64,000 nt of DNA from contig CM097885.1 of assembly GCA_044892525.1 (NCBI GenBank), positions 207,762,001-207,826,000 of the forward strand, written 5' to 3'. A program made the translations under genes and the position numbers. Positions within the stretch are counted from its first letter, which is position 1, and each line of letters begins with the position of its first letter. Of the stretch, positions 37,739-63,715 are shown piece by piece. The DNA comes from Schmidtea polychroa. Taxonomy: Eukaryota. Under the pieces are notes generated by a model. That model was not told where the DNA came from. It ran no database searches and worked only from the letters and a program-made list of their open reading frames with translations.

Positions 37739-37756
37739 TGGGGGCTCAGCCGGGAT
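37739..37756 (+). promoter_or_regulatory. Primer-binding site, tRNA-Pro
   Basis: TGGGGGCTCAGCCGGGAT versus the canonical Pro PBS TGGGGGCTCGTCCGGGAT (2 mismatches), 7 nt after the LTR end. Confidence 0.85.
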
Positions 37757-38011: not shown

Positions 38012-38497
38012 ATGACGGAATTCGCAGAACAGATGCAACAATTAATTAATTTCATTAATATAGAAAACGACCCTATTAAAACACTCATACAAAAAGGAAA
38101 GCGAATCAACAGCATTTTACTCCAAGCAATCGGACATACACCAGTCGTACCTAACCACGTGTTATTGGCCGCAGGTTTAAGCCACTCAGATGAAAAGATA
38201 AATCACGAAACAGTATACCAATGGTACCTAAAACGACTAAAAAACCCGGCCCTAAATCTAGAATACGAGCGAATAAAAGATCAACTACATACAATATCAG
38301 AGGCAATCGAACAAAAGATACAAGAGAAACTCACCAAATTGCGAACCTGTCTGTCTTGCAATCTTCGCCCTATACGCATACTATTTTTACCTTGTGGACA
38401 CCTCAGTCATTGTGAAGAGTGCGTGAAAGATCTGAAACGATGTGCAATATGTAAAAATGGGATAAAAGAAACCCATATGGTTTATTACGGTGATTAA
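38012..38497 (+). CDS. IAP-type C-terminal RING finger protein without BIR domain
   Basis: RTCLSCNLRPIRILFLPCGHLSHCEECVKDLKRCAICKNGIKETHMVYY at the extreme C-terminus after a coiled segment, as in cIAP/XIAP; strong acceptor upstream, AATAAA downstream. Confidence 0.9.
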   Translation: MTEFAEQMQQLINFINIENDPIKTLIQKGKRINSILLQAIGHTPVVPNHVLLAAGLSHSDEKINHETVYQWYLKRLKNPALNLEYERIKDQLHTISEAIEQKIQEKLTKLRTCLSCNLRPIRILFLPCGHLSHCEECVKDLKRCAICKNGIKETHMVYYGD

Positions 38498-43152: not shown

Positions 43153-46100
43153 AGAAAAACAACCAGCCAACCTTTACGATTGGGCTAAAGATGCCAAGGC
43201 AGAATATGATTTTAATATCAAATTGAAATTAGAACAAATAAAACAATGTACTCTGAGACGAAACCTGGATAAGCTGATCAAACAAATTCAAGAACAAGTA
43301 GAAGACAACTGGGATTTACTCATCACCAGACGAGCCCCAGCCATGTACGAACTAATGAGCCGGTTGCGAGATACAGAAATGCTCCGAATGAGTGATTGGA
43401 GAACCATAAATTTGATCCACAAATATGGAAGGTTAAAAGAAACCCAGCCACAGAGGTTGGAAATAACCATATGGTTACCGAACGAAGAGAAACGACGAAT
43501 AAAAATGAGCAATCAGAGTACAGTAGATGACTTGGTATCAAAAATAAACCAAGAGATAACGGAAAAGGTACGTAGCGAAAGTAGTGATGGTATGGTGGAT
43601 GATGTAGTCATGATGTACGATAAAATAATATTACGAGCGGAGGACGACACCTCGTTAAGCGAAATGGGTATGTGGGACAATCATCAGATAATCAGGATAG
43701 TACCAATGGATGAATTCCGAACAAGAGATGTAACCTATCAAAAAGAAATACGAGACCGGATGAAAACGTTATATCAAAAATCTACAGAAATAATTGAAAT
43801 CCACCAACAATGGTTAAAAGAAAAAGAGCTACAAGGAAAAATCACGAAATTAAATACCAGATCCTGCAGACGAACCCCATGGGAAAGAGTGTGGAATGCA
43901 GAAAATAAGGAATGGGAAATCCGGAAAGGGATCTTCGTAGAAACAGACATTGGTGAGACAGAAAGTGAATCGGAGGAAGAAGAAGAGGAATTTCCAGAAT
44001 ATGAAGAGGAAGCAAGGGAACAGACATCAGATGACGAAGGCGAGACGGATGTCACATCAGAAAGCGAAAATGAAGCGAGACATATTCATGCAATGAGGAA
44101 AAAGGAACGTGAATATGCTGATATGGACGGCGAGGAAGCAATAGAAGCAAGAGAGCGAGAAGAGAAAGAAAGATATAAACAATTAGGCGATATTTTAGCA
44201 ATGGGAGCGAAAAATCAAAAACGCCAGGTAGTAGCGTTGGCTAATATCATCTTAAAAACATCAGAGAATATCCACAATCTGAGAGGAATGGCAAAGGCAA
44301 TAGAGGAATACCGGCAATATAATGAATGGTATCCAGAACAGCTAGAACAAATTATTCGAAAATGGAGAAATCAGGAATGGGCACAAGACACTCAGGAGAG
44401 GTATCACATCCGAATCAAGTATCCGGACAAGAGCATCGAGGAACTAGAGGTACATCCAACAACAAAAATTAGAGAATTAAAAAAGAAATTAGCATATGAA
44501 ACTCCATTCCATCTGCAACTATTCGGAAAATCACTAGACGATAATGCAGACGTCGGGATAACACCCATGAGATTGGAAGAGACAAATGTATTAACAATGG
44601 CAGAAACGTTGGGGAAACCGTTAAAAAGGAAAAGTAAAATTACTAAACCAACAAAAGGCAGTTTGAGTACTCCAAGTCCGAACAAAGCACCAAGTAAATC
44701 TAATGAAACTGAAGAAGTTGAAGAGATCATCCTGGAAGATAGTGACGATGAACCAGGAGAAAGATCACCGCTATTAGTGAGATGGCCGACAGGAGCCGAA
44801 ATGTGGACTAATAACCAGCCATCAACGAGTTATCAACAACCAACGAAACTGAACATCAAAGAAATCATCGACAATACTACGGAAACCGAAACGGATGAAC
44901 AATTCCAGAAGCAAAGAGAACCAACGAAAGTAACACCAGAAGGTCAAACCGATAAAATAATAGACGAATGGAATGAGTGGCTAAGAAATAGCGATAGCTC
45001 ATTACCCAGAACGGATAACGAAAGAAACCCGAATTACGAAAATACCAGAGAAGCCGGAACGATGATGGAAAAACGGGCAAAAGGAAGACCTAAGAAACAA
45101 GGAGAAAAATCTGAGTTCAAAACCAAAGAACAATTAAAGCAAGAACAAGGGCAAGTTCGATTAGAAAAATTGGATAAAATAGTATGGGATCTAAAGGAAG
45201 CCCAACCAACGACCGAAAGAGGAGAAAAATGGATACGAGAATTGATCAAAGATATGTTAATAATAACAAACCCACAACTTAGACGTTCGTGGCAACGGAA
45301 AGTAGCCAGCACGGAAGCTAGACAATTATGGCACACCATTTCGGGGATAATCCCAAAGTTAATCAAAGAGAAAACGAAAACCACCAAAACGGATTGGGAC
45401 GAAACAAAGAGAGTGATTGAGCAGCTCACGACAAATGCAAATGATGACGAACATCATCTAGTGGTAATCACGTATTTGATGTATAATTTGATGGGACTAG
45501 CTGCGAGGAAAATACCAAATAAACAGTTTGCAAATCATGTGGAAATGACCGTTTCGATCATAGAGAATACTATTGAACCACATATTATTCGTGCAGGAGG
45601 ATGGAAAAGACTGATACAAGCGCCACGAAAAAATGAGCAAGAAAGGTCGATGCAAGTTAGATTGAAAAAACTGTTAAATGAACTAGAATGGGAACTACCG
45701 ATGAAAGATCTCGCAAGCAGAAAAGCATCAATAAATTCGTTAATGATGACTATGATGATATGGATGTTGTGCACCAGTGGAGCAACGGGTTTTACCATCT
45801 ACGATTGTGATAATATGATAATGAGAGATAAATACTCATTGAGAAACATAGAAGAATGCAGACAAGCCTCACCCAACAAATTGGACATCGTGAGAACAAA
45901 AGTTACTTACCATGTATATCAAGAATCAGATTTCATCAGAACGCAAGCAAGGGAATGCGTAGTATCAAAAAAGGTACTCGCATATTACTGTGGACAATAT
46001 TCGTATTCGACTCTTATACTACCCGGTCTGGATAAAGAAATCGTATCAATACAACGAGAGGACTGTAAAGAGCTATTTAGAACCGGAGCGCTAAAAATGC

Positions 46101-47152
46101 ATAACGGAGTGACGATTCACGGACAAACTGGAATGATTAAAACCGAAAGTGTTTACGTATCCGGAAAAGTAAAATCATCAGATGGGTCATGTAACGGAGG
46201 TACGTATACAATCCGAGGCGAGGTAATATCAGGAGTAGTAGTGATCGAGTCTTATACGGTTGAATTAAAAGAATACGAAGCGCAATTTGACGCAAATAAT
46301 TATCAGACGAAGACCAACCCAGCGTGTAAAGCTACAGAAAACGTATGCAGGACAGGAGTATCAACTATAATCTATGATGCTAATACCCAAAAATGCCGAC
46401 TCCAACTGTTAAAAAGTGCTTTGTTCAATGAAGTAAAAGGAGAAATTTACGAGAACGAGAACGACGAGGATGGAAACGACAGAGTGAGAATGCGAAATGG
46501 AAAACCGATGCCACCATCTCCCAGAGAAAAGAGACTTTCAACGCAGAAGACACCAACAGCATTAATCACAGACGATCCAGATCTAGGTATGAGATTTATC
46601 AAAGAGAAAGAAACCACCAAATGTGACAGTATAGTATATAAAACCAATTACGCAGGTATCTACATGTCGAGACAAATAATCGATAGAGCAGTGGGAAAGA
46701 TAGCAACGGAGGACGTAAAACTATACTTATATGCAAATAATAAAATGGATTTTCTATTTCATCGTGGACAAACGACCTTGCAAAAAGTATATTACGATCT
46801 GATACAAAACGATTGTTCATTGAATAAAGAAATATTGAAAACAAAGCTAGCTATTGCGATAACGCACCCCGATAACACGATGCCATCACTCCCACTACCA
46901 GACGGACATTTTGGTAGAATGGTAGGAGAAGTGATGTACACATACCAGTGTACCAAGACGTATGCACGAATGCCGGAAAAATCCATACTACCCGAAAAGA
47001 GATGTGCAAATGAATTAGAAATTCGTTATAAAGGACAAAATCGATTCGTCCAACCAGTCACTAGAATTATGAATCCAGTGGGTTTCTACCCAAATCTCTT
47101 TAACTGTTCTAATGCATACGGACCTTTGTATGAAAGACCCGATGGGAAATGA
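43145..47152 (+). CDS. Element B polyprotein segment: 2x Ubl, AT-hook, Bcl-2-like domain, signal peptide, class III-type glycoprotein ectodomain
   Basis: YHIRIKYPDKSIEELEVHPTTKIRELKKKL...LFGKSLDD (Ubl); KGRPKK; IEPHIIRAGGWKRL (BH2-like); GFTIYDCDN...YYCG...DGSCNGG...GEVMYTYQC...FVQPVTRI. +1 frame relative to gag; no ATG start. Confidence 0.88.
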   Translation: MHKEKQPANLYDWAKDAKAEYDFNIKLKLEQIKQCTLRRNLDKLIKQIQEQVEDNWDLLITRRAPAMYELMSRLRDTEMLRMSDWRTINLIHKYGRLKETQPQRLEITIWLPNEEKRRIKMSNQSTVDDLVSKINQEITEKVRSESSDGMVDDVVMMYDKIILRAEDDTSLSEMGMWDNHQIIRIVPMDEFRTRDVTYQKEIRDRMKTLYQKSTEIIEIHQQWLKEKELQGKITKLNTRSCRRTPWERVWNAENKEWEIRKGIFVETDIGETESESEEEEEEFPEYEEEAREQTSDDEGETDVTSESENEARHIHAMRKKEREYADMDGEEAIEAREREEKERYKQLGDILAMGAKNQKRQVVALANIILKTSENIHNLRGMAKAIEEYRQYNEWYPEQLEQIIRKWRNQEWAQDTQERYHIRIKYPDKSIEELEVHPTTKIRELKKKLAYETPFHLQLFGKSLDDNADVGITPMRLEETNVLTMAETLGKPLKRKSKITKPTKGSLSTPSPNKAPSKSNETEEVEEIILEDSDDEPGERSPLLVRWPTGAEMWTNNQPSTSYQQPTKLNIKEIIDNTTETETDEQFQKQREPTKVTPEGQTDKIIDEWNEWLRNSDSSLPRTDNERNPNYENTREAGTMMEKRAKGRPKKQGEKSEFKTKEQLKQEQGQVRLEKLDKIVWDLKEAQPTTERGEKWIRELIKDMLIITNPQLRRSWQRKVASTEARQLWHTISGIIPKLIKEKTKTTKTDWDETKRVIEQLTTNANDDEHHLVVITYLMYNLMGLAARKIPNKQFANHVEMTVSIIENTIEPHIIRAGGWKRLIQAPRKNEQERSMQVRLKKLLNELEWELPMKDLASRKASINSLMMTMMIWMLCTSGATGFTIYDCDNMIMRDKYSLRNIEECRQASPNKLDIVRTKVTYHVYQESDFIRTQARECVVSKKVLAYYCGQYSYSTLILPGLDKEIVSIQREDCKELFRTGALKMHNGVTIHGQTGMIKTESVYVSGKVKSSDGSCNGGTYTIRGEVISGVVVIESYTVELKEYEAQFDANNYQTKTNPACKATENVCRTGVSTIIYDANTQKCRLQLLKSALFNEVKGEIYENENDEDGNDRVRMRNGKPMPPSPREKRLSTQKTPTALITDDPDLGMRFIKEKETTKCDSIVYKTNYAGIYMSRQIIDRAVGKIATEDVKLYLYANNKMDFLFHRGQTTLQKVYYDLIQNDCSLNKEILKTKLAIAITHPDNTMPSLPLPDGHFGRMVGEVMYTYQCTKTYARMPEKSILPEKRCANELEIRYKGQNRFVQPVTRIMNPVGFYPNLFNCSNAYGPLYERPDGK

Positions 47153-48436
47153 TGATGTTACCGGGAAAAACCATATCCGAGGAACCCAAGAAATTTGGAT
47201 TAATAGAACTCGCCACAGAGCTGGATTTCAAACCTATAGACGTGTCAAACGGTGGTATGTATTCCCCAGAAGATCTAGAAACAGCACGACTTAACGTACT
47301 CTTCCCAGCCAGACGAGAATCCATTTTGTCTAATATGGTAACAATAACTGGGGGCACAAACTATCAATCAGGCCCGAATTACGAGCTGCTATTATCGCCA
47401 GACCATTTTCAACAAGCTACGTCAAACATGATGAAAGCAATGTGGGGAAGATTCTTAGTTTTTGGACAAATGATGGCCGGGATATTAGGGATCATACTCA
47501 TAATTCAGATAGTTAGAGTAATACTAACACAAATGTTAGCTTGTTTCGACATATACAAGCGGGAAAAGAAAGTTAACTGGAAAATGATAGTAGGTTTCTT
47601 ACCATTTTTAGCTAAAACCATGGTATTACATGGTCACTCAAAAGACATTCATCGGATAAAGCGATTGATTAAAATATTGACAAAGATTAAAGGAACCGAC
47701 GAAGAAGTAGGCAGACGATTCCGGAAAGTAATGTACGATGAAGCAACAAGACGACAATTGAAAAAGAATAAGCCAAAATTCTTGGACCGATTTAGAAGCC
47801 AATCATCTAACAGCGATAGTGACGACGATGATAACGGGAACGATAAATGTCTTTATCCAAACAGAAACCCAAACGAAAAACCAATGGAAACGGCACCATA
47901 TTGGGAAAAGGAAAAGACAAACACCTGGATCGCCAATGGAAGCTATATACCACCGGATATCGTGGGACCACAAGCAGCTTTGACCATGACACAAAATATG
48001 TATCCGCAATTACCGAGTCAACCCGGTATGCATTATATGCCGACACGACGTACCAAAAGTGTAGATCAAGCAGATGACGTGAGAACAATCGCAGCGATGA
48101 GTCTACCTGGAGGTCCAGCAGTAACAGTCATGATCCAAATCAATGGTAAAGAAACCAATGCTATGATAGACACAGGAGCTAATGTATCAGCGATATCGAT
48201 TAATCAAATCCCCAGTAAACACTGGAAAGATATCGAATCAACAACAATTCACATCATGTAGTAAAGAAACAGTGGACGTGGTCGGAAGATGGTGGACTAC
48301 ATTGAGATACCAGGACAACGAAATTGAAACGTATTTGGCAGTAATACCAAAACTTAGCGTACCATGCATAATCGGAACGGACCTGATGCCAGAATTATTA
48401 AAAGAAGTCGTAATAGACTTAACATTGTTAAGTTAA
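47149..48436 (+). pseudogene. Element B polyprotein segment: glycoprotein TM anchor, cytoplasmic linker, aspartic protease (frameshifted)
   Basis: TM FGQMMAGILGIILIIQIVRVIL; AMIDTGA (48169). The C-terminal half of the protease (CIIGTDLM) lies in the +1 frame 48255-48436. Confidence 0.88.
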
Positions 48437-51400
48437 CAACTATGTGTTTAAAAGACAAAACCGGTAGAATATGCAAAATGAATGCAGTAATCAGATGTCC
48501 AGAAAAAATAATAGTACCAGCAAAATCACAGATGATTTGTCAGATAAAAGTGGATACGGGTATGGAAGGAGAAGTTATCTTTGAACCAAGCAAGTCATTC
48601 GAAAAGCGACGAGAGTTACCACTCGCAAGGGAAATAATAACAATAAACCAAGAAAAAGTGATACCGCTCAACATCACGAATTTCGAAGAAGAAGACAAAA
48701 TCATCTATGAGAATGAAAAATTGGGAAGATTGACCCCAATGATGGACATAGAATTACCGAAAGTGACCAACGAGATGATCAAAGATGATGAATTATGGAC
48801 AATAGATAGTATGTTGTTGACGAATGATGAAAAGAAAAAATTGCACCGATTGTTGGTGGAATATAAAGATATATTCGCCATCTCAGATTTAGATTTGGGT
48901 ACATGCGATGTTACCCTACATGCAATACCCCTCATAGATGAAACTCCAATTGCATTAAGACCATACAAGCTAGCAGAAATGCAAAAAGAAATAGCCGAAG
49001 CAGAAGTACAAAAGATGCTAGACGCAAAAGTAATCGAACCGAGTTGCTCACCTTGGCAATTCCCAGTGGTCATGGTGAAAAAGAAAGATGGCACCCAACG
49101 ATTCTGTATCGATTATCGGAAGTTAAACGCAGTAACCAAGAGAGATACCTATCCATTGCCGGACATCAATGAGATGTTATTGATGTTGCAAGGGGCAGCA
49201 TATTTTACTTCTTTAGATCTAAAAAGTGGATACTGGCAGATTAAAGTCAAAGATGAGGACAAAGAGAAAACAGCTTTCACGTTGGGACGAGATCTATATC
49301 AATTCAGGAAAATGCCATTCGGACTGACCAACGCACCAGCATCATTTCAACGGTGTATGAACTTTGTCACTCATGGAATCAAACAATGTATGGTATATAT
49401 TGATGATTTACTAATCTATTCAGCGACATTTGAACAACATCTGGAAGATATCCGAAACGTATTTATTAGATTAAGACAGTGGAAACTCAAACTCAAACCA
49501 TCAAAATGCGATTGGGCAAAGGAAAAAGTCACGTTTTTGGGACACATAGTGTCAGCTAAAGGAAAGGAGCCAGATCCAAGAAACATCGAGAAAATAAAAA
49601 CATGTCCAGCACCGAAAACGGTCACCCAAGTTCAGGAATTTCTAGGATTATGCGGATACTATCGCAAATTTATCAAAAATTATGCAGGAATTGCAAAACC
49701 AATCCAGGAATTAGTAAAGAAGGACATTTCGTTCATTTGGGGGAAGGAACAACAAGAGGCGTTTGAAACGCTGAGAGACAAACTAATCGAAGCACCTATC
49801 CTCGTACACCCAGATTTTAAGAAGCCATTTCTATTGGCAACGGATGCAAGCGGGTACGCGGCAGGCGCGATTCTGGGACAATTAGACGAAGAAGGAAAAG
49901 AAAGAGTGATTGGATACTACAGCAGAACGTTTAAAAAGCACGAGAAAAACTATTCCGTAACCGAGAGAGAAGCGTTAGCAATTATACAAGCGATTAAACA
50001 TTTTCGATATTTGTTGTGGGGACACGAAATATGTATCACAACAGATCATCAACCACTAGTATGGCTTGGTCAACACAAAGAAGCTTCAAGTAGATTGATG
50101 CGATGGGCAATGCAGTTACAAGAATATTCACCGTTCATAAAATTCAAAGCGGGAAGAGCGAATGCCAATGCGGATTGTATGTCCAGATTTATCTTTCCAG
50201 ATTTAGTAGATCACGAAATGCAACGAATATGTCTGATGGTAGCAGAAGATTTAGATTTTTGCCAATTACGGAAAGACCAACAAGAGGATACAGAGTTGAA
50301 GCAAATCATTGAGTATGTGAAAACAGGGAAAGCAGAGGTATATGAGAAAGATCAAAAATTGAAGGAGCATATGGATAAACATCGACATCGATATATTATC
50401 GAGAAAGACTGGTTGTTGATAATGGATGGAGAAAAAAGACTGATGTGCATTCCCGAGAATAGACGTAAAGAGCTGCTAACACAATACCATGACGGAAGAC
50501 TCGGAGGACATATGTCGTCTAAAAAGACGTTGGCAAGAATGAAACAGAAATATTTTTGGCCTACGTTAATCGAAGACGTAACCGAATGGGTAAAAAATTG
50601 TCTAACTTGTGCGACCAGGAAAAATACTGGATCGAAATGGAAAGCACCTTTAACGCCAATGCCAGTACCAATAGAACCAATGACAATGATATCCATGGAC
50701 GTAGTTGGTCCACTACCAGAGTCAGATAAAGGAAATATTTACATTTTGGTGATCACAGACTTTCTTACGAAATTTCCAGAAGCATTCGCGATGCCAGACC
50801 AAAAAGCTAAAACAATCGCAAAAATTTTGGTAGAAGAGATATGCTGCCGATATGGAACACCAAAACAGATATTAACCGATCAGGGAACTAATTTTATGAG
50901 TGAAATAATGAGCGAAGTAACAAATTACTTCAAAATAGCAAAGCTAAGAACATCTCCATACCACCCTCAAACCAATGGGATGACGGAAAGATTTAATGGA
51001 ACACTTATACAAATGTTATCAAACTACGTCGATCGTCACCAACGAGATTGGGACGAATATATAAACCTATGTCTTATGGCATACAGAATGTCAATTCATG
51101 CATCAACGAAAATGAGCCCATTTAAATTAATGTACGGAAGAGAGTGCAACATGCCAATGGACCTGGAATACCAACCACCGATATCGCAGTATATGGAGAT
51201 CGACGATTATGTTACGAAATTCAAGGAAAGAATGCAAGAAATTTGGGAAACTGCGGGATTAAATATCAAGTTCTACCAGGAAAGTTATAAAGATTTACAC
51301 GATCGAAAGAAAAACGTGAAGCAACATACGTTTCAAACAGGTGATTGGGTAATGATAGAAACCCCGGAATTAATTCCAGGAACCACAAAAAAGTTACAAC

Positions 51401-54400
51401 GCAACGGAAAAGGACCATATGAGATTCTATTTGTAGGCGAAACCAATGTAAGAGTGAAATTGATAAATAATCCATTCACCAGGCCAATATACGTGAACGT
51501 GGCACGATGTAAATCAATTCCAAAAACCGCCACCAGTCAACCAGAAGGTCGAACATTAACCACACGTTCGCAAACATACAGAATGAATATGATGCAACAA
51601 CTCGCAGAACCTATCACTGGACGATTGGGCATACAACCATCGGAAGCGGAAAAAATCGTACGAGAGGTAAAGATAAAATTACCCGGATGGGCAAAAGATC
51701 GATTAGATTTCGAAATTTTAGGAGGATTATTGACGATGATCGAAAATTATGCGAACAGAGAGAGGACACATCCGTTATTGCGAGTAGTCAAAAGCCAATG
51801 GCCAATATTATTTACAATAACAGATCATTACGGAGACACACCATTACACAAACTCATGAAAGTAGGTAACAACGAGCAAATACTAGAAACAATAGAAGCA
51901 TTTCACGACTGCAAGCGATCAACAGAACAAACAAACAACCAAGGTTACACACCATTAATGATAGCAGCAAACAGAGGAAAAACCAAAGACATTATAACCG
52001 CATTACTTGATACTGGATCAAAAATAACTACACAAGACCACGAGCGGAAAAATGCACTACATCATGCTATCGAAGGGAAAAGTACCGAGGCGTTCACGTC
52101 ATTGATGGAACTACTATCATATGAGGACAATCGGGAAGTCGGAAACATGTATGATGGATTGTTGACAGCGATCAAAGAAAAACTGACGACAATTACCGGA
52201 ATATTAATTACCTGGAGAAATCCAATTCAAAACGATTATATGATCAACGTAAACGAAGCGTTCACGAGAGGAGAGAACACGCTGATGAGAGAAGCTATGA
52301 AAGGACATCAGTTATTCGAAATCCCAAATCAATTGTTAGAACGAGGAATAAAATTCACAAATCACAAAGATGAACAGTTAGCAAAAAAGCGAATCGACAC
52401 ATTCGAAAAATCAATATTCCAATTTACTAACCAAGTACGAAATAAATATTGGGAAACGGTAAGTGTGTTATATATGATGGACACAATGAATAACATCCGC
52501 GAGAATTACCTGGATATTATCCAAATACTTACAGCAGAGGAACGAATCAATAATCCAAACGGAAAGAAAACGAAAATAAGGTATGAGAAATCCAGGGAAT
52601 CAAAGTCAACAACGAACCATACGGTCACAAACAACGTCATCAAAACCAAATCAATGAGTATAGGTCAAGAGGCAATAATACGCAAAGCAAAAGAAGTTTT
52701 CTTTGAGGAAATGCTAGAGTTGTCAGACGAAATAATATTGTCAAAAATAATAAAAGCAGTACATACATACGCAAGAGATCAAACCACGGGATTAGATATC
52801 GGGAAAATCAAAACCTTCTTGCCTCGAGCATTTACGATGGTAACGAAGGATTCCAGAACACCCCTACAACAAGCAATACTAGCAGCGAAAGAAAATAGAG
52901 CAATAACGATCATGAGAATCCTTGGAGATATGGGCGAGGAAACCAACACGAAAAATGAACAAGGCGAAACCGCCATGATGTATGCAGCTATAACGAAAAT
53001 ACACCCAAAAACACTCCACATACTACATCAATCGGGATCGAGACTAGACGAAAGGTCCAATGAAGGAAATTCCACCTTGGACTGGGCAACCATACAGCCA
53101 AACTTAGAAATGATCAGATTCATTTGCAAAAATGCGACAAAAGAAGAAGTTGAAAATATATGCAAAAACACATCTCAATTTCAGTGGAATACGGTACGGA
53201 AAAATCTGGAAGCAATGAAATTATTAGTAACATGGAGAATACCACAAAGTAATAAATATGCGATAAATATAAACGAATTCTACGAAAACGGAGAAAACGC
53301 GATGGTAAAGAATACATTAACTAAAGGGGGGACACCAAAAATTATTTTAATAGTACTAAACAGAGAAGACCTCAAATTCACGCAAAATCAGAGCGAGCAA
53401 CAAAGAATTGGGAAACATCGTCGCATTCAATTAAGAGAATTAGTCAAAGAATGGAATAGAAAGAGACACGCTGCAACGGGCAGAAAAGAGTTTGAATTCG
53501 AAGCAAAATTAGCAAGAAACAGAGTGCTAACAGCATATCGCAGATTATTGAACGATATAAATGTCGAGGACGACATTTTAAATGACAGTGGGGGAGATAA
53601 ACACGATGACAATAACGGAAAAGGCCGAAAGGAGGATAAAGAAAAAAGAGAACCGGAGGAGGATAAACCGGAAAACAAGGATTCGGATACGAAAAGAGAG
53701 GGAAACAGCCCGGGAACTAAGACCAAAGAGGAGGAAAAACCGAATAATGGAAAACAGAGGGTATGCCTACCTTTCACTAACAAAGAAATAGAGACAAATA
53801 TGATATTAATGATAATTATGCTTACCATGATAGAGTTAGTAACAGCTCATGGAGGGACGAGAACGATAAAAGAAACCAAAGAAGCGGAGAATCAAGATAG
53901 CAAAGAGGACGAACTAAAACAAGAAAAGAAAAAGCAAGCACAAGAGCAGCAGTGGGATTTAAAGGAAGAATGGGACTTAAAGGAAAGGTGCATACTAGGA
54001 AGATGCATGTCTAGAGCGTATCAGAAACTAGTACTGATAAATGAGGACACAGAACCAATAACAGAAGTAAGAATACAAGAAGCATACCGAAATCGAGACG
54101 GGAAAAGAATAACGAACGTTAAAGGAAAAGAGGTACACCTAGGAAAAGGTGGTGAAGTAGTAATAACGCAGCTCCAACCAAGAAAAGAGCACAAAGTCTG
54201 TATTTCAAGATTAGGACCGGGTGAGAGATGCCATCAATATGTGACGCAGCAGCAGCCCCCGAAGGAATATACGGTTTGTATCTGGAGGAACGAATCAAAA
54301 AGAGAATGCCGACGATACCCGGGGAAAAGAGGAAAGAAAAGGAAAAACCACGACGAAAAGGACGAAGGAGGAAAGCACAAGAAAACTGGCGAGGAAGCTC

Positions 54401-54801
54401 AGGACAACTATGTTTCGGAGGAAGAGATGGAAAAAATACAAAAGATGGCAAAGGAGGGTATGAACGAGGAAATAGCAAGAATACGAGAGATGATGAAAGG
54501 GAATGGCAAAAGAGGGAACGAGAAAAGTACAGAAGCAATATCAACATTAACAAACAAGGAAAAACCAGAGAGTATAAGCGTGAAGCAGATGATGTGGATC
54601 AGTGGGATAATAATAACAGGGGCATTCCTAATCATAACGGGGGGAACAATAAAAATAATTAAAGATAAACGACATCGCGGAGAACTAGAAATGACCCGAA
54701 TCAGAAACTTCCAACATCGAGTGAAACGACCAAGTGATATCAAACAAGAACAGTGGGTGGAGGCCTGGAACGTTCAGCGCCCTCCAAACTCACGTATATA
54801 G
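48364..54801 (+). CDS. pol: Element B Pol with extensions: RT, RNase H, integrase, two ankyrin modules, signal, FN3-like domain, TM
   Basis: RFCIDYRKLN, MPFGL, YIDD (49396); ATDAS...EALA...TDH...NAD; HDG..GGH/C..C, MDVVG, TDQG, ERFN; GDTPLH, GYTPLMIAA, GETAMMYAA; ITQLQPRKEHKVC; TM WISGIIITGAFLIITGG. True coding in this frame begins at ~48433. Confidence 0.95.
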   Translation: MHNRNGPDARIIKRSRNRLNIVKLTTMCLKDKTGRICKMNAVIRCPEKIIVPAKSQMICQIKVDTGMEGEVIFEPSKSFEKRRELPLAREIITINQEKVIPLNITNFEEEDKIIYENEKLGRLTPMMDIELPKVTNEMIKDDELWTIDSMLLTNDEKKKLHRLLVEYKDIFAISDLDLGTCDVTLHAIPLIDETPIALRPYKLAEMQKEIAEAEVQKMLDAKVIEPSCSPWQFPVVMVKKKDGTQRFCIDYRKLNAVTKRDTYPLPDINEMLLMLQGAAYFTSLDLKSGYWQIKVKDEDKEKTAFTLGRDLYQFRKMPFGLTNAPASFQRCMNFVTHGIKQCMVYIDDLLIYSATFEQHLEDIRNVFIRLRQWKLKLKPSKCDWAKEKVTFLGHIVSAKGKEPDPRNIEKIKTCPAPKTVTQVQEFLGLCGYYRKFIKNYAGIAKPIQELVKKDISFIWGKEQQEAFETLRDKLIEAPILVHPDFKKPFLLATDASGYAAGAILGQLDEEGKERVIGYYSRTFKKHEKNYSVTEREALAIIQAIKHFRYLLWGHEICITTDHQPLVWLGQHKEASSRLMRWAMQLQEYSPFIKFKAGRANANADCMSRFIFPDLVDHEMQRICLMVAEDLDFCQLRKDQQEDTELKQIIEYVKTGKAEVYEKDQKLKEHMDKHRHRYIIEKDWLLIMDGEKRLMCIPENRRKELLTQYHDGRLGGHMSSKKTLARMKQKYFWPTLIEDVTEWVKNCLTCATRKNTGSKWKAPLTPMPVPIEPMTMISMDVVGPLPESDKGNIYILVITDFLTKFPEAFAMPDQKAKTIAKILVEEICCRYGTPKQILTDQGTNFMSEIMSEVTNYFKIAKLRTSPYHPQTNGMTERFNGTLIQMLSNYVDRHQRDWDEYINLCLMAYRMSIHASTKMSPFKLMYGRECNMPMDLEYQPPISQYMEIDDYVTKFKERMQEIWETAGLNIKFYQESYKDLHDRKKNVKQHTFQTGDWVMIETPELIPGTTKKLQRNGKGPYEILFVGETNVRVKLINNPFTRPIYVNVARCKSIPKTATSQPEGRTLTTRSQTYRMNMMQQLAEPITGRLGIQPSEAEKIVREVKIKLPGWAKDRLDFEILGGLLTMIENYANRERTHPLLRVVKSQWPILFTITDHYGDTPLHKLMKVGNNEQILETIEAFHDCKRSTEQTNNQGYTPLMIAANRGKTKDIITALLDTGSKITTQDHERKNALHHAIEGKSTEAFTSLMELLSYEDNREVGNMYDGLLTAIKEKLTTITGILITWRNPIQNDYMINVNEAFTRGENTLMREAMKGHQLFEIPNQLLERGIKFTNHKDEQLAKKRIDTFEKSIFQFTNQVRNKYWETVSVLYMMDTMNNIRENYLDIIQILTAEERINNPNGKKTKIRYEKSRESKSTTNHTVTNNVIKTKSMSIGQEAIIRKAKEVFFEEMLELSDEIILSKIIKAVHTYARDQTTGLDIGKIKTFLPRAFTMVTKDSRTPLQQAILAAKENRAITIMRILGDMGEETNTKNEQGETAMMYAAITKIHPKTLHILHQSGSRLDERSNEGNSTLDWATIQPNLEMIRFICKNATKEEVENICKNTSQFQWNTVRKNLEAMKLLVTWRIPQSNKYAININEFYENGENAMVKNTLTKGGTPKIILIVLNREDLKFTQNQSEQQRIGKHRRIQLRELVKEWNRKRHAATGRKEFEFEAKLARNRVLTAYRRLLNDINVEDDILNDSGGDKHDDNNGKGRKEDKEKREPEEDKPENKDSDTKREGNSPGTKTKEEEKPNNGKQRVCLPFTNKEIETNMILMIIMLTMIELVTAHGGTRTIKETKEAENQDSKEDELKQEKKKQAQEQQWDLKEEWDLKERCILGRCMSRAYQKLVLINEDTEPITEVRIQEAYRNRDGKRITNVKGKEVHLGKGGEVVITQLQPRKEHKVCISRLGPGERCHQYVTQQQPPKEYTVCIWRNESKRECRRYPGKRGKKRKNHDEKDEGGKHKKTGEEAQDNYVSEEEMEKIQKMAKEGMNEEIARIREMMKGNGKRGNEKSTEAISTLTNKEKPESISVKQMMWISGIIITGAFLIITGGTIKIIKDKRHRGELEMTRIRNFQHRVKRPSDIKQEQWVEAWNVQRPPNSRI

Positions 54802-55321: not shown

Positions 55322-55406
55322 ACCAAACCTAGCTTAAAATGTAAATAATTGTAAATAAAATATCGAACCTGTATCGATAAGAACTATATGTACATATAAT
55401 TATAGA

Positions 55407-56795
55407 ATGGATAAACGACAAAGAGAAGAGTTCAGAGAGATTGTCGAGCAAATCCGAAAATCTACAACGATCAGAATACACAAACATGTTATGTGCGGAA
55501 TATGTGAAAAGTTACTAAAAGAACCCCACCAAACCCTATGTGGATGCAGAGTATGTAAGGAATGTATCAGTGAAGCAATAAAGAATAGACCACAGTGGTG
55601 CCCGGTGTGCAAAGAGACACTAATATCGAGTTTAGAAGACACTAACGAGGATAAAGCCGCCGTGAAAGACATGTTAAACACCAACCTGGGATGCAAAAAT
55701 GCCCCATGCGAATGGAAAGGAGTAATATGGAAGGTAGTGCAACATATGGGGGAATGTATGTATAGAATCGGCCAGTGTGAAAGGTGCCATAAAACCATTC
55801 GAGCAAGCGAAGAAAAAGAGCATCATAGCCAGTGTGAAGAGAGACTAGAAAGATGTGAACATTGTGGAGAAATAGATACGTGGAAAAATCTCACCATCAA
55901 ACATCACAATGTCCAAGAAGAAAAGGTATGTGCAGAGTTCAGTGGGGAATGCCCGAACGGATGCGAGGAAGGGAGAATAATAAAAATAGCCCAACACTTA
56001 AAAGAATGTGAGAAGAAAAGGATGATATGTGTACTAGGTAAATGGGGCTGTCAGAAACTATTACACCGAGGAGAGTTACCACATCATTTAGTAGAAAATG
56101 CTTCAACCCACGCAGAAATGTGGTCGACTGCGTTACAAGAAAGCGATGAGAAAGTAAAACAAATGGAGATGGAGATAACATCGTTGAAAGTGTTAGTCAA
56201 AGAACTACTAGAAGAAAGGGAAGCGTTCGAAGAAGCCCGAGCAAACATAAAGATGCAAATGAACCGAATAGAAATCAGTAATAATCAGGCCAAGGAGCTA
56301 CACCAGAAAATACGGGAAATAAATCTAAATGAAGTAATACCAACAGCACCCTACATATGGAAAATAACGGAAGTAAAAGAAAGAATACGAAAAGCAAAAA
56401 CCGGAGAAGAGACAAGAATAACAAGTCCTGCATTCCATTCTTGGAAAAATGGGTACAAGATGAAAATAAGGATATATCCCAACGGAGATGGAACCGGATT
56501 GAATACACATTTTTCGATATTTTTTCTATTATGTAAAGGGGAATATGACGAAATAATAGAATGGCCATTCCAGGCAAAAATCGATATCACAATGATGAAT
56601 GACCAAAGCGTCCACGAACAAAGCTTTAAAACGACGGGAACCCAGCTGTGTTACCGGCGACCTATTGATGAGGAAGGAGCAGCATCGGGAGCGCCTACAT
56701 TCATCTTGCAGCAAAAGATGGAAGAGATGACGAGAAATGACACAATATATATAAAAATGACAGTACGAAGGGAAGGAAAGGGTAGAACGGAGTAA
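55407..56795 (+). CDS. traf: Full-length intronless TRAF-like protein (RING, TRAF zinc fingers, coiled coil, MATH/TRAF-C)
   Basis: RING CGIC...PHQTLCGCRVCKEC...CPVC; C..GC.W.G...HMGEC fingers; MATH YIWKI...SPAF...GYKMKIRIYPNGDGTG..THFSIFFLLCKGEYD..IEWPF. Confidence 0.96.
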   Translation: MDKRQREEFREIVEQIRKSTTIRIHKHVMCGICEKLLKEPHQTLCGCRVCKECISEAIKNRPQWCPVCKETLISSLEDTNEDKAAVKDMLNTNLGCKNAPCEWKGVIWKVVQHMGECMYRIGQCERCHKTIRASEEKEHHSQCEERLERCEHCGEIDTWKNLTIKHHNVQEEKVCAEFSGECPNGCEEGRIIKIAQHLKECEKKRMICVLGKWGCQKLLHRGELPHHLVENASTHAEMWSTALQESDEKVKQMEMEITSLKVLVKELLEEREAFEEARANIKMQMNRIEISNNQAKELHQKIREINLNEVIPTAPYIWKITEVKERIRKAKTGEETRITSPAFHSWKNGYKMKIRIYPNGDGTGLNTHFSIFFLLCKGEYDEIIEWPFQAKIDITMMNDQSVHEQSFKTTGTQLCYRRPIDEEGAASGAPTFILQQKMEEMTRNDTIYIKMTVRREGKGRTE

Positions 56796-56989: not shown

Positions 56990-58045
56990 ATGACACAAGA
57001 GAGAGTAACCGAAAATACGATAGCCCCAACCAATACCCACAAGACACAAATTCCCAGAGAATATAATGAAAAATGGAACAAAGTAATGTTCCAACTAACT
57101 AACCTCACCCGAAACTACATCGAAGAAGCTAGAGAAGATGAGAACAGTAAATATCAATGGCTAATCCACAATTTAAGAGAGGAAGCCGAAGCATGTAAAA
57201 GAGCATCAAAATGGGCATCATTAGAAAATACCCGCCAAGAAGCGCACAGCCACTACTTAAAGCAGCTAGTGCAGGAAGCGAGAAAGAGACTTACCGATGA
57301 GAACACCAAGCGCGAAGCGGAAAAGCAAATAGAAGGAAGGAAAATGATGCACTTAGTGGCAGAAGCGAGAAAATGGAAAAGACAAAACAGTGAAATGAAA
57401 AAAGAGATGAAAGAATTGCCCATGAGACTCGGATATGAAAGCGAACAAGGTAAATGGGAGGAGAATTTAATAATAAAGGAAGAATTGAAACGGTTGAGAA
57501 AGGTCGCCGCCCGAAGTCAAACCTGGCAAACAAAAGCCATGGAGTTTGAGCGACATTTGGCAATGAAATGCGACATAAGAGAGCACGAGAACGCCGCAAT
57601 GGAAGAGATGATAACCCAACAAGCAGGACGGATTGTGGAATTAGTAAATCAGGTCGAAGAGATGAAAAGAGACCTTAATGGATTACAAGGATCGCTGGAA
57701 CAAAGAAACATGGTCCTAGCGGGAAAAAATAAAAAATTAGAAAACGAGAGGAAAATGTATACCGAAAATATTAAAAACTTAGAAATAGAAATTGAAAAAT
57801 GGAAGGGCGACGAGAAAATCAAGGCCCTAGACAAACAAATAGAGGCGAAAGACGAAGAGACAAGGTATCTCACCTATCTGCTCGACGAGGAATTGAACAT
57901 CACTCGAGCTCTAAGAGACGAAATTAATGAATTGAGAGCTCAAATCCCCCAATATTACCTACCCTATGACCCTATTGCGATACAGTTGCATCCCGCGGTC
58001 GATAGTGATGAAGGTTATGTGGGACTGGAGGAAACCTTCCTATAA
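56990..58045 (+). CDS. Element B accessory long coiled-coil protein
   Basis: Intact 351-aa E/K/R-rich heptad ORF; TTTAG acceptor 2 nt upstream of the ATG. Confidence 0.8.
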   Translation: MTQERVTENTIAPTNTHKTQIPREYNEKWNKVMFQLTNLTRNYIEEAREDENSKYQWLIHNLREEAEACKRASKWASLENTRQEAHSHYLKQLVQEARKRLTDENTKREAEKQIEGRKMMHLVAEARKWKRQNSEMKKEMKELPMRLGYESEQGKWEENLIIKEELKRLRKVAARSQTWQTKAMEFERHLAMKCDIREHENAAMEEMITQQAGRIVELVNQVEEMKRDLNGLQGSLEQRNMVLAGKNKKLENERKMYTENIKNLEIEIEKWKGDEKIKALDKQIEAKDEETRYLTYLLDEELNITRALRDEINELRAQIPQYYLPYDPIAIQLHPAVDSDEGYVGLEETFL

Positions 58046-58215
58046 GGGTGAATAAAAGATAAAAACAAAAAAAAAATCGGGACGTACATCCCAAACAAAA
58101 AAATTAAAGTATTATAAAAGTATTCAAGGGACTGTAACCCGAACTATTAAATTTTATATAAATGTATATGTATAAGTCGCACTATAGCGCACCATTAACT
58201 GTACATATTATAGAT

Positions 58216-58926
58216 ATGAAAATCGAGGAAATAATAGAAATTGCGAGCGACGTAGAAGAGGGAGAGATTGAGGCAGAAACAACAAAAACACAAACGTTAA
58301 AGGCCGAGTTACGGGAAGAGAAGTACGAAAACGAGAGACTAGTAAACAAATATATAGAAGACCGAAAAATGATTAAAATACTTAAGAAGGAGTGCGAAGT
58401 GCTAGGAGAAATAAAGAGAGAAGTCGAAGAAAAGAATGAATGGCTGCAAGAACAACGAAAACGAGGAAGAAATTGGGAAAAGATTGCAGAAGAACTATGG
58501 CAAGAGAGGGCAAGCTTCAAGGCAGAAGAAGTAATCCAGGATTATTGGAAAACAGAGGCGAAAGAACGCCAAATAACTATAAATAAATTAAATCAACAAT
58601 TGGAGGAAAAACAACGAGAAAGTGAGGAAATGAAGAAATGGATTCGCAAATACCAAGAGATCGAGAAAAAACAACAACAACAACAACAACAACGAAACCT
58701 TTCGCAGGAAAACGAACAAGATTTCCTACAAATCGAACTAAAAAGGAATCTCGACAAAAAACGGGAAGAAATTAGAAGACTGAAAAAGGAGATAAGGCAC
58801 ATGAAAAGGGAGGTCCGTGAAAAGAACAGACAGTTGGAAATGCTGCCCGAGTTAAGACACAGAGTCATTAAAGCGGAATCCACCTTGATGAGAATCGCCG
58901 AAAATAACCCAAATCAGAACCATTAA
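58216..58926 (+). CDS. Element B accessory coiled-coil protein with poly-Q
   Basis: Intact ORF. The likely start is the ATG at 58216 after a TATAG acceptor (the track starts at 58162). Confidence 0.75.
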   Translation: MKIEEIIEIASDVEEGEIEAETTKTQTLKAELREEKYENERLVNKYIEDRKMIKILKKECEVLGEIKREVEEKNEWLQEQRKRGRNWEKIAEELWQERASFKAEEVIQDYWKTEAKERQITINKLNQQLEEKQRESEEMKKWIRKYQEIEKKQQQQQQQRNLSQENEQDFLQIELKRNLDKKREEIRRLKKEIRHMKREVREKNRQLEMLPELRHRVIKAESTLMRIAENNPNQNH

Positions 58927-58966: not shown

Positions 58967-59626
58967 ATGTATAATAGTATCATGCGAGGCGAGATGATGA
59001 TAACAATGGCGGTATTGATGATTCTGATGGAGAACAAACAATTAAACGCCCAACCGAAAATCGTACGAGATTACCGCAATCGAAATCAAGAACCTAAACA
59101 AGAATCCGGCAAATGCACATACCCTATGACCGTAAAAACCCATATCATCCAAACCATTCAATCAACCCGATCCCACATCAACAACATCCAAACAATGTGT
59201 AAAAAGAATCCCATTTGTAAAATGATAAACAAACAAATCTTCGAACAAAGCCAACAAATCGACCAGTTGGAACAACAAATGCAACAAGAGAATTTTGAAA
59301 ATCTTGTAGAAAAGCCAAAAACACCTCCCGAAATCAATGACACCCATTATCTCACATACGTGGTGATCGCAGAAACCCTCCTCCTATGTCTACCAATACT
59401 CATGATAATTTACGAAGTTAGAAATAGATGTAGAATCTCGACAGCAATAAGAGTAACCTCGAACAGAAATCCTCAAGAAGTGCCGCTGACAAATCTTAAC
59501 CCAACCCCATTCCGACCTCGAATCCCGAGTAACCAACCAATCCAGCCGAATTCTAACAGTCAGACCTATCTCAACATCAATACCCAAACCAACCAACAGC
59601 CGCCAGCAGAAGCATCAAATAGTTAA
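58967..59626 (+). CDS. Element B accessory predicted type I membrane protein
   Basis: N-terminal hydrophobic MMITMAVLMILM, a Cys-containing helical ectodomain, TM YVVIAETLLLCLPILMII, and a P/N/Q-rich tail. Confidence 0.7.
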   Translation: MYNSIMRGEMMITMAVLMILMENKQLNAQPKIVRDYRNRNQEPKQESGKCTYPMTVKTHIIQTIQSTRSHINNIQTMCKKNPICKMINKQIFEQSQQIDQLEQQMQQENFENLVEKPKTPPEINDTHYLTYVVIAETLLLCLPILMIIYEVRNRCRISTAIRVTSNRNPQEVPLTNLNPTPFRPRIPSNQPIQPNSNSQTYLNINTQTNQQPPAEASNS

Positions 59627-59854: not shown

Positions 59855-62800
59855 TGTTGGGCTGAGCCGAAAGATAGCTGGGAAATCAGGTTAAATTTAA
59901 CTAAAGAAAAATAAAAAATAAAATAAATAGATCGAGGAATAAAATAGAATAGAACATAAGAAAAGTAATAATTAGAAAATAAGAATTAAAACAAAAAACA
60001 TAAAAATAAGAACAATTAAATAGGACAATAGAATGACGAAAAATAACGTAAAAGGTAGTAGATAATAAGGAAATTAAGGAAAATAAATAAAAACATAATT
60101 TTAATAAAGAAAATAAGAAGAAATAACCCAAAAACAAGGAAAATAAATTAAATGAATAAAATAAGGCGGTACTCAATTCTGATTGGTCCGCATAAACAAA
60201 AAATACCTATATAAGTAAGCAGCAAATTCACTATAATCAATGTTAAAATCAAACCAATTATAGGTACCCGACAATCAGGAAAACCAAACCATACTCAGAC
60301 AACTATTAGGGACAGTTTTATAGACTACTCATTCATATAACCGATTGGATCAGTTTATATTTCGGCTCAGCCTTTGGAACTACAGAATTTTTCAAATAAT
60401 AAAGTAAGGATGTATTGCTATTATGAAATTTGTTTTTGAAGGATTTAAATATTTCTATTATATTAACCTAACTTTTGAATAAAAACTTCTCCATTCGGTT
60501 TCGATCTTTTAACGATTTTATGGTTCATAAATTAATTTACAGGTCAATGATATATAAATATTTATGTTATGTTTTGTCATCAAACGTATTGATTATGCTA
60601 AAATTATTTGTTTTGAGAAACGTGGAGTTGAGGAGACCCACGCCATGGTATGAGGAGCCTTCGGGAGCTCAGCCGGCGGGTGTGGATCTCTTCAATCACG
60701 CAGCTGACGTGGGCCGGAATGTGGGGGCTTCCTCACGGGTCCGTCGCTGAGGGAAATAAAATGCTGCAAGCACGAGTTTAAAGTGTAGAGGAATATATTC
60801 CAATATTGAAAAGTAGAGCAAATCTGAATTGAAAATGACTGAGGTGGCTACAAACTCTTCCAAGTATGAGAATCTCATTTTCTTAGGTACTATACTTTGA
60901 AATTTTCGTCTAACATCATGAATTAGTCTCGATCGACTATTCACTTCCATGATACTCTATCATCTTGCGATAAATCCCCTTTTCGTCAAAATTCATGTCA
61001 ATTTTCATCTTAACTGATAGAACCCAAGAGCTAATACATTCACTCTGATGTTATGCAGTAGTATAGGAAGTATATATGGAAGATCACTGAACGCTTTTAT
61101 TTACTAAAAAGATATTTGGAGGAGTACGTTATTGTTTTTATCAAAAGCGCCTTAACTCTTTCTGAAATCCCCAATAGCCGTAATCTGAAGTCCGTTCAGT
61201 AAAAGACCCTCTGGCCTCATAACACAGTAAACATACAAGGAGAATTTACAAAAGTATTTAATTAAAAAGATAAAATTTCGTAAAAAATTCTTTATTTTCA
61301 TTAAAAAAAAAATATAATTCTGAGTTACCAGTAGTAGGAGCATAATAATCATTTCGGGAAGTTACCCCTGATAGATGTCGCTAAGATGAGGAAGGGCTTG
61401 AGCGAGTTGATAAAATCTCCACCGGACAGGATATTCTGATGTAAAGCGAGAGAGGCAGTATAATAAAAAATTTTTTCCAAATTTTCGTGTTTGCTGAGAA
61501 CTAAACAGTAGATTCATATCGGAGCTGAATGATTAAATTCCAAAAATCGATGTAATCCAAGTTCGGCAGTATAGATAAAATATGAACATGTACAGTGAGA
61601 AGGTATAGTCTGTCTGTAAGTATGCAGTGAATGAGATTGAGCAATCACCTGCAGGTAGAATCACATGTACAATAGCGAACAATTGCATATGGCTTAGTCG
61701 ATGTGATACTCATGCTGCCGGTACGGTAGCAGTGAATTCACAATTTAATCATCGATAATGAGAAAGTCGAATCCCATTGCACACACATGGTGAACACCAA
61801 CTTTTCTGAGAGATCTGAACACTAAGCCAGTTAACGAGGAGGCATGCAACAGATGGTTTGCATCATACGTGTCATACAACTAGAATAGAAATTAGACTAG
61901 TCTAACTTATCAGCAGTGTGATTGATCAAACAGAGCAAAGTCCATTTGACTGTAAAGTTTTTGTAATCGCACGCATTTACAATTAACTCAAATTAGAGTA
62001 TTATAATCACGAATAAACTCAAATCTTTTAATTAATTTATTATCCCGATGTATTGCACCTGTCTGAATTGTTTTGCTGATAGTAAAGTCGAATCTGGTCA
62101 CGCTCATGTATTGACAAGTTTTCTTAATCCGCAATAAAATTATCATGTTGGGCAAAAAGGGGGGGGAGAATTAATTTGTTAACCCGTAAACCTATAATTA
62201 CTTTACGGATGTAATATCAATCAACAGGAAGTTTCGCTAACAGTCATTCCGTTTTCTTCTTGTCGGTCATTTCAACCCATGAATGTAATGTAGGGAATTT
62301 ATGAGCCTTAATAAATAATTACGCTACTCTGATGGATTAGTAGAGCTAGCCAATTTTCGTCTTATCTCTATTATTCTTTCTTCATTATAGCTATCAAAAG
62401 ATGTTGCCAAGCACGAAATCGCCCATCAAACCCTGCTTCTCCTGCTCGGACAAAAATACCGTAATCCGAGAATTACAGGCCCAGATCGGTCGATATAAAA
62501 AGAAGATCGACGATCTGGAAGGTACATGGTTTAGCCCAGTACAAATGAAGGAAGTTCAAAAGAAATTGTACCGCAGTGAGCATTGTCGCGATGCTTTGAT
62601 AAGCGAAAGTAGAGCTCAGCGTAGCCTAATCAAAGAGCAGTCCGAAGCTCTACATAAAGTTTACGTTCAAGCCGCTACAACCCGAAGGATTGTTAGTATT
62701 CCGATTAAAGAAGCGGACAATGTCTTCCCCGTTCACCATGAACCTTCAGTTAGTTCGCCACCCTTGTCGAAAAGATCTTGTCAGGAATGTGTGGAGGCCG

Positions 62801-63715
62801 ACCTCTCCCCCAGGCCATCGGACGTACCTACTACCGGCACTGGCAAGGTATTGCATTCAGCCACGACGTCCTCGGCAATCTTGTCTGCCAACCCCTCAAA
62901 ACCTAAGCGCCGCCAATTGTCCAGAGCGGAGCGTAAGAAGCGCCAACGTGAACGAGCAATGGTCAAACAACGAGAACTATCTGCCAACCACCTAAGTGCT
63001 TCGAATGATCCACCCGTAACGATCGATCTGACCGTAGGAATCCCAGGGCGAATCATATCTGCCGCTGGTGTGACTTGGGAGGAGAATGCCTCCGAGTTTT
63101 TTGATCTAGATGAGCTATTGGCGGATGCGGGGTGGGAGAAGTGATGGCCGCAACACAATGCAACCGTGCAGGGTGCGAATGGACAAATATACTATCTTGA
63201 CTCTTTTTCTTCTTAATCTATTCTCCACCAAGTGTACTTGTTATGTAGTGTATAATTATTTAATGTATCATGATAATAAAATAAAGAAATATTTGGTTAA
63301 ATTTTTGTTGTTGTTTAAATCTAACTAGCTGTGATAAAGGTTCAGCGTAGTGTTCGCAAAGCGAGAGTAAAGTTTGAGTTCGAGAGGCAGTGGTCAATTT
63401 TGTACCGAATAATGGGTCAGGGTAGAGGGAGAATCTGATGAGGTAAACAGACGTAAGTCCTTCCATCGGCCGTCAGAAAAGGGAAGTCGAGGCCTCAGTA
63501 AGGAGTAGTCCTAAGGTAGGGGCTCACCTGCTTACTGGAGTCTCGCCGACATAGCACATTTCCAACGTGAAGCAATTCGCGGGTGCTATGTTGGAGGGCA
63601 AGTTGTGCGGGGTCCTGCTCCGGGTTGACACGGGCGTATGTAGCGTAATGATATGGGCACGCACCCCTAGACAAGGACGTAGATTGAGCAGAGTCAACCA
63701 AGCACTACCCCAGCA
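59855..63715 (+). repeat. Element B 3' LTR (3,861 bp)
   Basis: TGTTGGGCTG...CCCCAGCA followed by TSD CCTC; all internal ORF translations match the 5' LTR apart from one substitution. Confidence 0.97.
62401..63144 (+). CDS. Second copy of the LTR-encoded 247-aa protein
   Basis: Translation identical to 36417-37160. Confidence 0.75.
   Translation: MLPSTKSPIKPCFSCSDKNTVIRELQAQIGRYKKKIDDLEGTWFSPVQMKEVQKKLYRSEHCRDALISESRAQRSLIKEQSEALHKVYVQAATTRRIVSIPIKEADNVFPVHHEPSVSSPPLSKRSCQECVEADLSPRPSDVPTTGTGKVLHSATTSSAILSANPSKPKRRQLSRAERKKRQRERAMVKQRELSANHLSASNDPPVTIDLTVGIPGRIISAAGVTWEENASEFFDLDELLADAGWEK

Follow-up and report, generated by a model that had tools for sequence, protein, structure and literature searches.

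In the genome of Schmidtea polychroa, a giant LTR retroelement carries a complete TRAF gene in hundreds of its copies, and this gene bears the marks of selection. We find, by sequence comparison, that this gene likely goes back to one old capture from a planarian, and that its product is likely a retargeted adaptor, possibly also a ubiquitin ligase, that would dampen death or immune signals. We give this reading a probability of roughly 0.55. Articles with PMC identifiers are cited here from the part of their text available to us.

The window, that is the whole stretch of 64,000 nucleotides analysed, holds one copy of the element from end to end (Table 1). This copy measures 29,846 bp (~30 kb), has LTR ends TG..CA and a 4-bp target site duplication (TSD), CCTC, and its LTR pair is 99.9% identical, with 2 substitutions and 1 indel in 3862 bp. 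Its genes run in the order RING ORF, gag, mononegavirus-like fusion protein, PR-RT-RH-IN, ankyrins and five accessory ORFs, of which the TRAF is the second. Related copies fall into family A, the family of the window copy, with subfamilies A1 and A2, and into family B, which is Burro1-like. The polyprotein region of the window copy is split into four separate open frames, and it is a single 4732-codon ORF in two of the nine family-A copies sampled. The split is seen in a very young copy, the LTRs of which differ at only 3 places, and may reflect an assembly error or inherited damage. The 264-codon ORF of the LTRs has a counterpart in A2, and an ORF stands at a similar place in B. The primer-binding-site-like sequence is putatively tRNA-Pro-like. 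A 74-bp tandem array lies in the 5' untranslated region (window 39059-39650). A purine tract before the 3' LTR is absent at window 59830-59854, and A1, A2 and B have a similar non-purine motif just before that LTR.

Table 1. Features of the giant LTR element in window coordinates
Feature	Position	Strand	Remarks
5' LTR	33870..37731	+	3862 bp, TG..CA, TSD CCTC just before
264-codon ORF in each LTR	36366-37160 and 62350-63144	+ (5' LTR copy)	Pfam: no match
Primer-binding-site-like sequence	37739..37756	+	common to subfamilies A1, A2 and family B
5' accessory ORF, 161 aa, C-terminal RING (zf-C3HC4_3)	38012..38497	+	RING matches that of family B IAP
gag, env-like fusion protein, PR-RT-RH-IN, ankyrin region	40603..54801	+	Pfam order
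Small accessory ORF, 119 aa	54962..55321	+	directly upstream of TRAF in both families
Spacer: three TGTAHATA motifs, AATAAA, AG 1 nt before TRAF ATG	55322..55406	+	motif reading
Full-length TRAF ORF, 462 aa	55407..56795	+	Pfam, PDB search, model
Coiled-coil accessory ORF (Smc-like)	56990..58045	+	homologue in family B
Second coiled-coil accessory ORF	58162..58926	+	ORF list, Pfam scan
Accessory ORF, signal-like N-terminus and hydrophobic segment (by eye)	58967..59626	+	Pfam: no match
3' LTR	59855..63715	+	TSD CCTC directly after

Beside the TRAF MATH, the cargo comprises ankyrin repeats and a RING. A Smc-like ORF is called from its coiled-coil character, Pfam giving no Smc match, and a BCL2-like match stays under the Pfam Bcl-2 cut-off (E 0.036) and finds no support in the PDB search. 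For the 119-aa ORF upstream of the TRAF no family was found with Pfam, and family atlas recognition stayed under threshold. A BIR is present in family B; Pfam found none in any window ORF scanned, and the window element is therefore not Burro1 itself. A smaller, broken gypsy element at window 21027-31353 has the same layout with env between gag and pol, its pol is 36-43% identical to that of the giant element, and no TRAF ORF occurs in it; it is a candidate outgroup for how the giant elements grew.

The TRAF ORF starts with ATG and runs through 462 aa without an internal stop. Its domains follow in the order RING (30-68), zinc fingers (about 96-235), coiled coil (about 232-306) and MATH (about 313-455). 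Pfam detects the MATH over cut-off (E 3e-26 and 6e-26) and the RING under cut-off (E 7e-4); zf-TRAF is over cut-off in the family-B TRAF and is not listed for the window TRAF. A PDB sequence search returns TRAF2 as the best match (E 2e-29), then TRAF3/1/5/4/6, while the RING and zinc fingers match TRAF5/6/2 chains (TRAF5/6 E 4e-14) and the zinc-finger Cys/His align with those of TRAF5. The RING has Cys at all eight zinc-ligand positions, including the motif CGCRVC. An AlphaFold2 model built on an 11-sequence alignment (mean pLDDT 84.8, pTM 0.37) contains the RING, the zinc fingers, a 75-residue helix (232-306) and a MATH beta-sandwich, and every match listed by Foldseek for this model is a TRAF domain. 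By analogy with other TRAFs, the protein would trimerise through its coiled coil and MATH. Codon use matches the element, unlike that of host TRAFs: at four-fold third positions the TRAF has A 0.53 and T 0.08, as against 0.50-0.53 and 0.12-0.13 in gag, env and pol, and 0.32-0.44 and 0.26-0.41 in 10 host TRAF exons. The initial annotation, which described a whole intact RING-ZnF-coiled coil-MATH ORF carried as cargo, TRAF2/3-like and with element-like A-rich codons, is thus borne out, the gene lying between the two LTRs and its MATH being of the TRAF1/2/3/5 type.

The TRAF is mobile and present in many copies. A protein search with the window TRAF gave 2041 candidates; the 92 that were scored are all (nearly) full length (92/92) with 89-100% identity. 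An exact 24-nt TRAF pattern has 295 matches in family A genome-wide and a family-B pattern has 242, each with 0 in the control, so that the genome holds at least 537 element-type TRAF sequences (295 + 242), a figure that counts TRAF sequences and does not show the intactness of each. A family-A RT pattern gives 232 matches. Among the RT matches listed on C1 (n=92), 77 have the TRAF pattern and 9 a TRAF protein match 4-20 kb downstream (86/92), and 6 have neither. Of the 50 A1 loci examined, 49 have element DNA on either side of the TRAF and the remaining one on a single side. LTR sequence flanks both sides in nine of the ten copies that were fetched whole, and 4-bp TSDs were found in seven. 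The initial annotation would have been refuted by a gene confined to this copy and nested within host TRAFs at near identity. The 92 scored matches and 295 pattern matches rule out a TRAF private to the window copy, and identity to the seven host full-length TRAFs that were aligned is only 26-31%.

Subfamily A2 is 69% identical and has the same gene order. Family B (L065-L068, L181-L184) is 67% identical to family A in pol and 30% in the TRAF, which sits at the same position. The family-B order is a 4791-codon polyprotein with an internal MATH, a small ORF, the whole TRAF, a BIR-RING IAP (Pfam E 9e-16) and coiled-coil ORFs. Family A has neither the polyprotein MATH nor the BIR-containing IAP that follows the TRAF in B. 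All 90 family-B TRAF copies scored are 99-100% identical, and family B is a recent burst. Some copies have histories of their own. Six A2-type copies (L104-L108, L111) have two stops in common and break off at TRAF residue 292-302. Five of the six lie less than 1 Mb apart on C1, and the group is likely a segmental duplication of one dead copy. In L081-L100, pol tail and TRAF disagree in how far they have diverged from the window at synonymous sites (0.82 vs 0.32 in L081, 0.10 vs 0.32 in L084), pointing to recombination between subfamilies.

Is the gene kept because its product matters? Pooled TRAF dN/dS against the window is 0.13 (35 of 50 copies, those with dS above 0.05), as it is for the pol tail, a value to be read with the facts that the 50 A1 copies were picked for the likeness of their protein to that of the window, a choice that biases dN downwards, and that pairs against the window share a branch. 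Non-overlapping pairs give 0.11, 0.14, 0.18 and 0.22. Free of this bias are comparisons with L101, L110 and L112, which were found with another query, and with family B; dN/dS is 0.07 for the window against L110 and 0.13 for family B. Divided by part, it is 0.11 for RING and zinc fingers, 0.24 for the coiled coil and 0.13 for the MATH, and seven of the eight RING cysteines are invariant in 50/50 copies, the eighth being kept in 49. Among 49 copies, pN/pS is 0.13 for variants found in at least two of them, none of which is a stop, and 0.46 for private variants, which include 5 stops. This is the pattern expected if selection acts during element replication and is relaxed after insertion. By these estimates the TRAF evolves under purifying selection, with all domains, including the RING, constrained. 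Such selection means that the protein matters to the element; it says nothing on its role.

The same data bear on the idea of a functionless captured gene that hitch-hikes passively, intact only through the youth of its copies. The window copy is indeed of very recent date, its LTRs differing at 3 places in 3862 bp, as are, by their 99-100% identity, the 90 scored copies of family B. Yet the frame and all domains persist between A1 and A2, where dS is saturated and dN is 0.18, and the TRAF is kept across families with 67% pol identity, with dN/dS of 0.07-0.22. The dN/dS and shared-versus-private variant results refute passive carriage, to which we attach next to no credence; the view that the gene is a long resident of the element is supported.

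Retargeting is suggested by the receptor groove. Five of the eight TRAF2 peptide-binding residues listed in PMC1334386 are kept or conservatively replaced in the element TRAF: 45 intact copies all have Tyr357, Asp361 and Phe407, position 355 is Arg or Lys and position 427 is Ser or Thr. The TRAF2 serine triad Ser453-455 is Gln-Leu-Cys in the element, and Ser at the first triad position is kept by five of seven host full-length TRAFs. The element MATH may have binding partners only partly like host receptor tails. Faster change of the groove loop was considered as a sign of an arms race and set aside: 0.67 against 0.35-0.54 shared alternative residues per site is too small a contrast.

A conserved coiled coil and MATH (0.24 and 0.13), a groove partly diverged from those of host and human TRAFs, and hundreds of copies that could out-titrate host genes would also suit a dominant-negative decoy, which joins host trimers or fills receptor or adaptor sites and so blocks host signalling. 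A decoy should have no use for its RING and zinc fingers, but here constraint on this part equals or exceeds that on the other domains (0.11) and its ligands are near-invariant. Nor does the His-to-Cys RING speak for it, being the normal host state. We consider the decoy unlikely, and the adaptor reading, in which the TRAF would act as a trimeric adaptor and possible ubiquitin ligase of partly changed specificity, is the one we prefer.

That host state is seen in 37/37 distinct host RINGs, all of which have the CGC motif (the RING exons of three deeper-branching host genes lie outside this count). Among 100 database matches with a readable motif it occurs in 21, including a crinoid TRAF3-like protein. 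The Cys in place of His, which the initial annotation had singled out as a feature of the element, is instead a host trait.

Where did the gene come from? In a full-length tree of 22 rows, A1, A2, B and one database protein form one clade (support 100/98), which stands at 99/99 after removal of long host branches and at 83/83 in a MATH-only tree. Independent capture in A and B is rejected by the AU test, in which a tree that separates family A from B and joins it to host L031-L034 has a p-AU of 0.014; the element rows have long branches and odd composition, and the clade could be partly an artefact. A quick tree of 51 rows, with 36 more database proteins and most of the 150 database matches excluded by length and motif filters, recovers the element clade at 98, inside a clade (96) of Cys-type TRAFs that also holds host genes and a Dendrocoelum TRAF-2 protein. 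Because the element TRAFs make up one clade inside the triclad TRAF clade, one old capture from a planarian TRAF is likely. The shared gene order of A and B also speaks for a single origin. The trees place the parent in a polytomy, singling out no host donor. Retro-capture, that is capture from a spliced mRNA, as originally proposed, would be one route, and it is unproven because several host TRAFs are also single-exon in the coding region; in at least seven, a single open frame spans everything from RING to MATH (L031-L034, L036 and the two genes of L075). The database proteins P0001, P0007, P0018 and P0021 are TRAFs of 36-40% identity, and the three included in tree building group with the element TRAFs; it is likely, then, that whole TRAFs also ride in similar elements of other species. 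Word-index homologue searches returned only 2 and 3 proteins, and none for the polyprotein MATH.

A further question is how the element relates to the TRAF/MATH expansion of planarians, for which PMC6109357 reports 121 MATH domains in the S. mediterranea transcriptome; PMC7586133, in the part available, leaves those MATH transcripts unresolved. As in that report, the present genome has many host TRAF-like genes, in large tandem clusters on C1 and C2 (L039-L060, L116-L132) made up of short, exon-split genes with RING and MATH in separate exons. The cluster group on C1 has a very divergent MATH. Unlike the element TRAF, these genes are exon-split, have the codon usage of the host and are placed by the trees outside the element clade, and the available text of PMC6109357 draws no link to retroelements. 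By blastn, 0/60 host-type stretches match the element internal region, and several carry diverged LTR-region fragments. Tree placement and the lack of internal-region matches rule out an element origin of the clusters. The suggestion that mobile copies contribute to the expansion therefore stands in part: elements dominate the genomic TRAF count, and the tandem clusters of the host expanded separately. Any count of TRAF/MATH genes in planarians thus mixes these clusters with the element-borne copies, of which there are at least 537.

Signals around the gene suggest how it might be expressed. The motif TGTAHATA occurs in all six spacers of the 3' cassette (window 54802-59854), in 11 copies against shuffled means of 0.00-0.07 per spacer, and is absent from the 13.9 kb of gag-pol; AATAAA is found in each of the six spacers, including one downstream of the TRAF at 56848. 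In 6/6 copies inspected across A1, A2 and B (in family B, L067 and L181-L184 were examined), the TRAF ATG is preceded by an AG at a distance of 0-2 nt, and an AG also precedes most other accessory starts, some of which were chosen after the AG was seen. These are likely polyadenylation signals and splice acceptors, judged by motif; alternatively, TGTAHATA could mark Pumilio or forkhead sites. Because an AG stands just before the ATG and each spacer holds 3'-end-like signals, we infer that the TRAF may be translated from a spliced sub-genomic mRNA, by cis- or trans-splicing. Among the matches listed, contigs of two runs (X1 and X6, from one study and guessed to be RNA) span the TRAF ORF, most of them with 85-95% identity. 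Several X6 contigs terminate in a run of A, at places where the ORF is itself A-rich, and no splice joint or leader appeared among the X1 and X6 contigs listed. Runs X7, X8 and X9 gave, among the matches listed, 2 contigs elsewhere in X7 and none in X8 or X9.

As for the role itself, the TRAF would act together with the RING/IAP, ankyrin and BCL2-like cargo of the elements so that cells expressing the element stay alive or quiet. Enrichment in the intestine and repression by SMEDWI-2 are reported for BURRO1 RNA (PMC8532177), and planarian host TRAFs are intestine-enriched survival factors (PMC7586133), an agreement that fits the proposed role without testing it. Alternatively, the TRAF might serve the life cycle of the element, helping as scaffold or ligase to assemble particles or to traffic or turn over element proteins, and leave host signalling alone. 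Its co-retention with coiled-coil ORFs and an env-like protein would suit such a role, as would the weak grouping (83/83) of the family-B polyprotein MATH with element TRAFs. However, the cargo nearby is cell-death themed (the family-B IAP, ankyrin repeats, the weak BCL2-like match), and the smaller relative in the window, with the same gag-env-pol layout, shows no TRAF ORF, which makes this role distinctly improbable. More improbable still is a pro-apoptotic or pro-signalling factor that promotes death, turnover or spread. It has a precedent in the TRAF of the iridovirus ISKNV, ORF111L, which binds TRADD and induces caspase-8 apoptosis (PMC3352826), but an element inherited through stem and germ cells would presumably gain from cell survival, planarian host TRAFs are needed for survival (PMC7586133), and family B carries an IAP alongside its TRAF.

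If the adaptor reading is extended, Burro elements could carry a spliced, virus-style accessory cassette, in which a re-tuned TRAF ligase adaptor together with IAP/RING, ankyrin and BCL2-like cargo switches off host death or innate-immune signals. More than 500 copies would then outnumber the host TRAFs, supply part of the catalogued MATH transcripts and shape de-silencing phenotypes. We put this forward tentatively, as possible and short of probable.

By description and layout, the window element is likely of a kind already known from planarians, the Burro/GYPSM1 giant gypsy-like LTR elements (Jurka 2007; Grohme et al. 2018; as described in PMC6431247). It resembles them in its length of about 30 kb, long LTRs (3.86 kb here), a gag-env-PR-RT-RH-IN polyprotein of about 4,700-4,800 aa, an env that lies between gag and protease and is a mononegavirus-like fusion protein, and ankyrin, RING, Smc-like and MATH_TRAF_C cargo, to which the sub-threshold BCL2-like match may be added. 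PMC6431247 lists MATH_TRAF_C, BIR, ankyrin, RING, Smc and BCL2-like motifs and an in-frame env, and places MATH_TRAF_C inside ORF1 in Burro1 and in an upstream accessory ORF in Dugesia tigrina, so that Burro elements were known before to carry MATH_TRAF cargo. Here, in contrast, a whole RING-to-MATH TRAF gene lies downstream of pol; family A lacks polyprotein MATH and BIR, whereas family B has both a polyprotein MATH and a whole TRAF. Our literature search found no paper beyond PMC6431247 that deals with a whole TRAF gene in these elements, with where it came from or with selection on it (PMC11410931 mentions Burro and, in the part available, not TRAF), nor a whole selected TRAF in an accessory cassette with splice-acceptor-like starts and an altered receptor groove, and the original Burro descriptions may bear on this and their domain maps may already show the ORF. 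Interference of Burro with apoptosis and ubiquitination is a published guess (PMC6431247), which, if our reading is true, becomes testable with one small gene.

With animal TRAF2/3/5 and the planarian host TRAFs (Smed-TRAF-1/2, -2A/B; PMC7586133) the element TRAF shares domain order, fold and the Arg/Lys, Tyr, Asp, Phe and Ser/Thr groove residues, and its Cys-type RING is that of triclad TRAFs; it differs from host TRAFs in its 26-31% identity, replaced serine triad, A-rich codons, mobility and hundreds of copies. As with ISKNV ORF111L (PMC3352826), a host TRAF has been captured and kept by a viral or mobile genome, there a large fish DNA virus with a TRAF reported to be pro-apoptotic, here a retroelement. 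If true, a retroelement has long kept a whole host signalling gene and turned it against host death or immune control, as large DNA viruses do.
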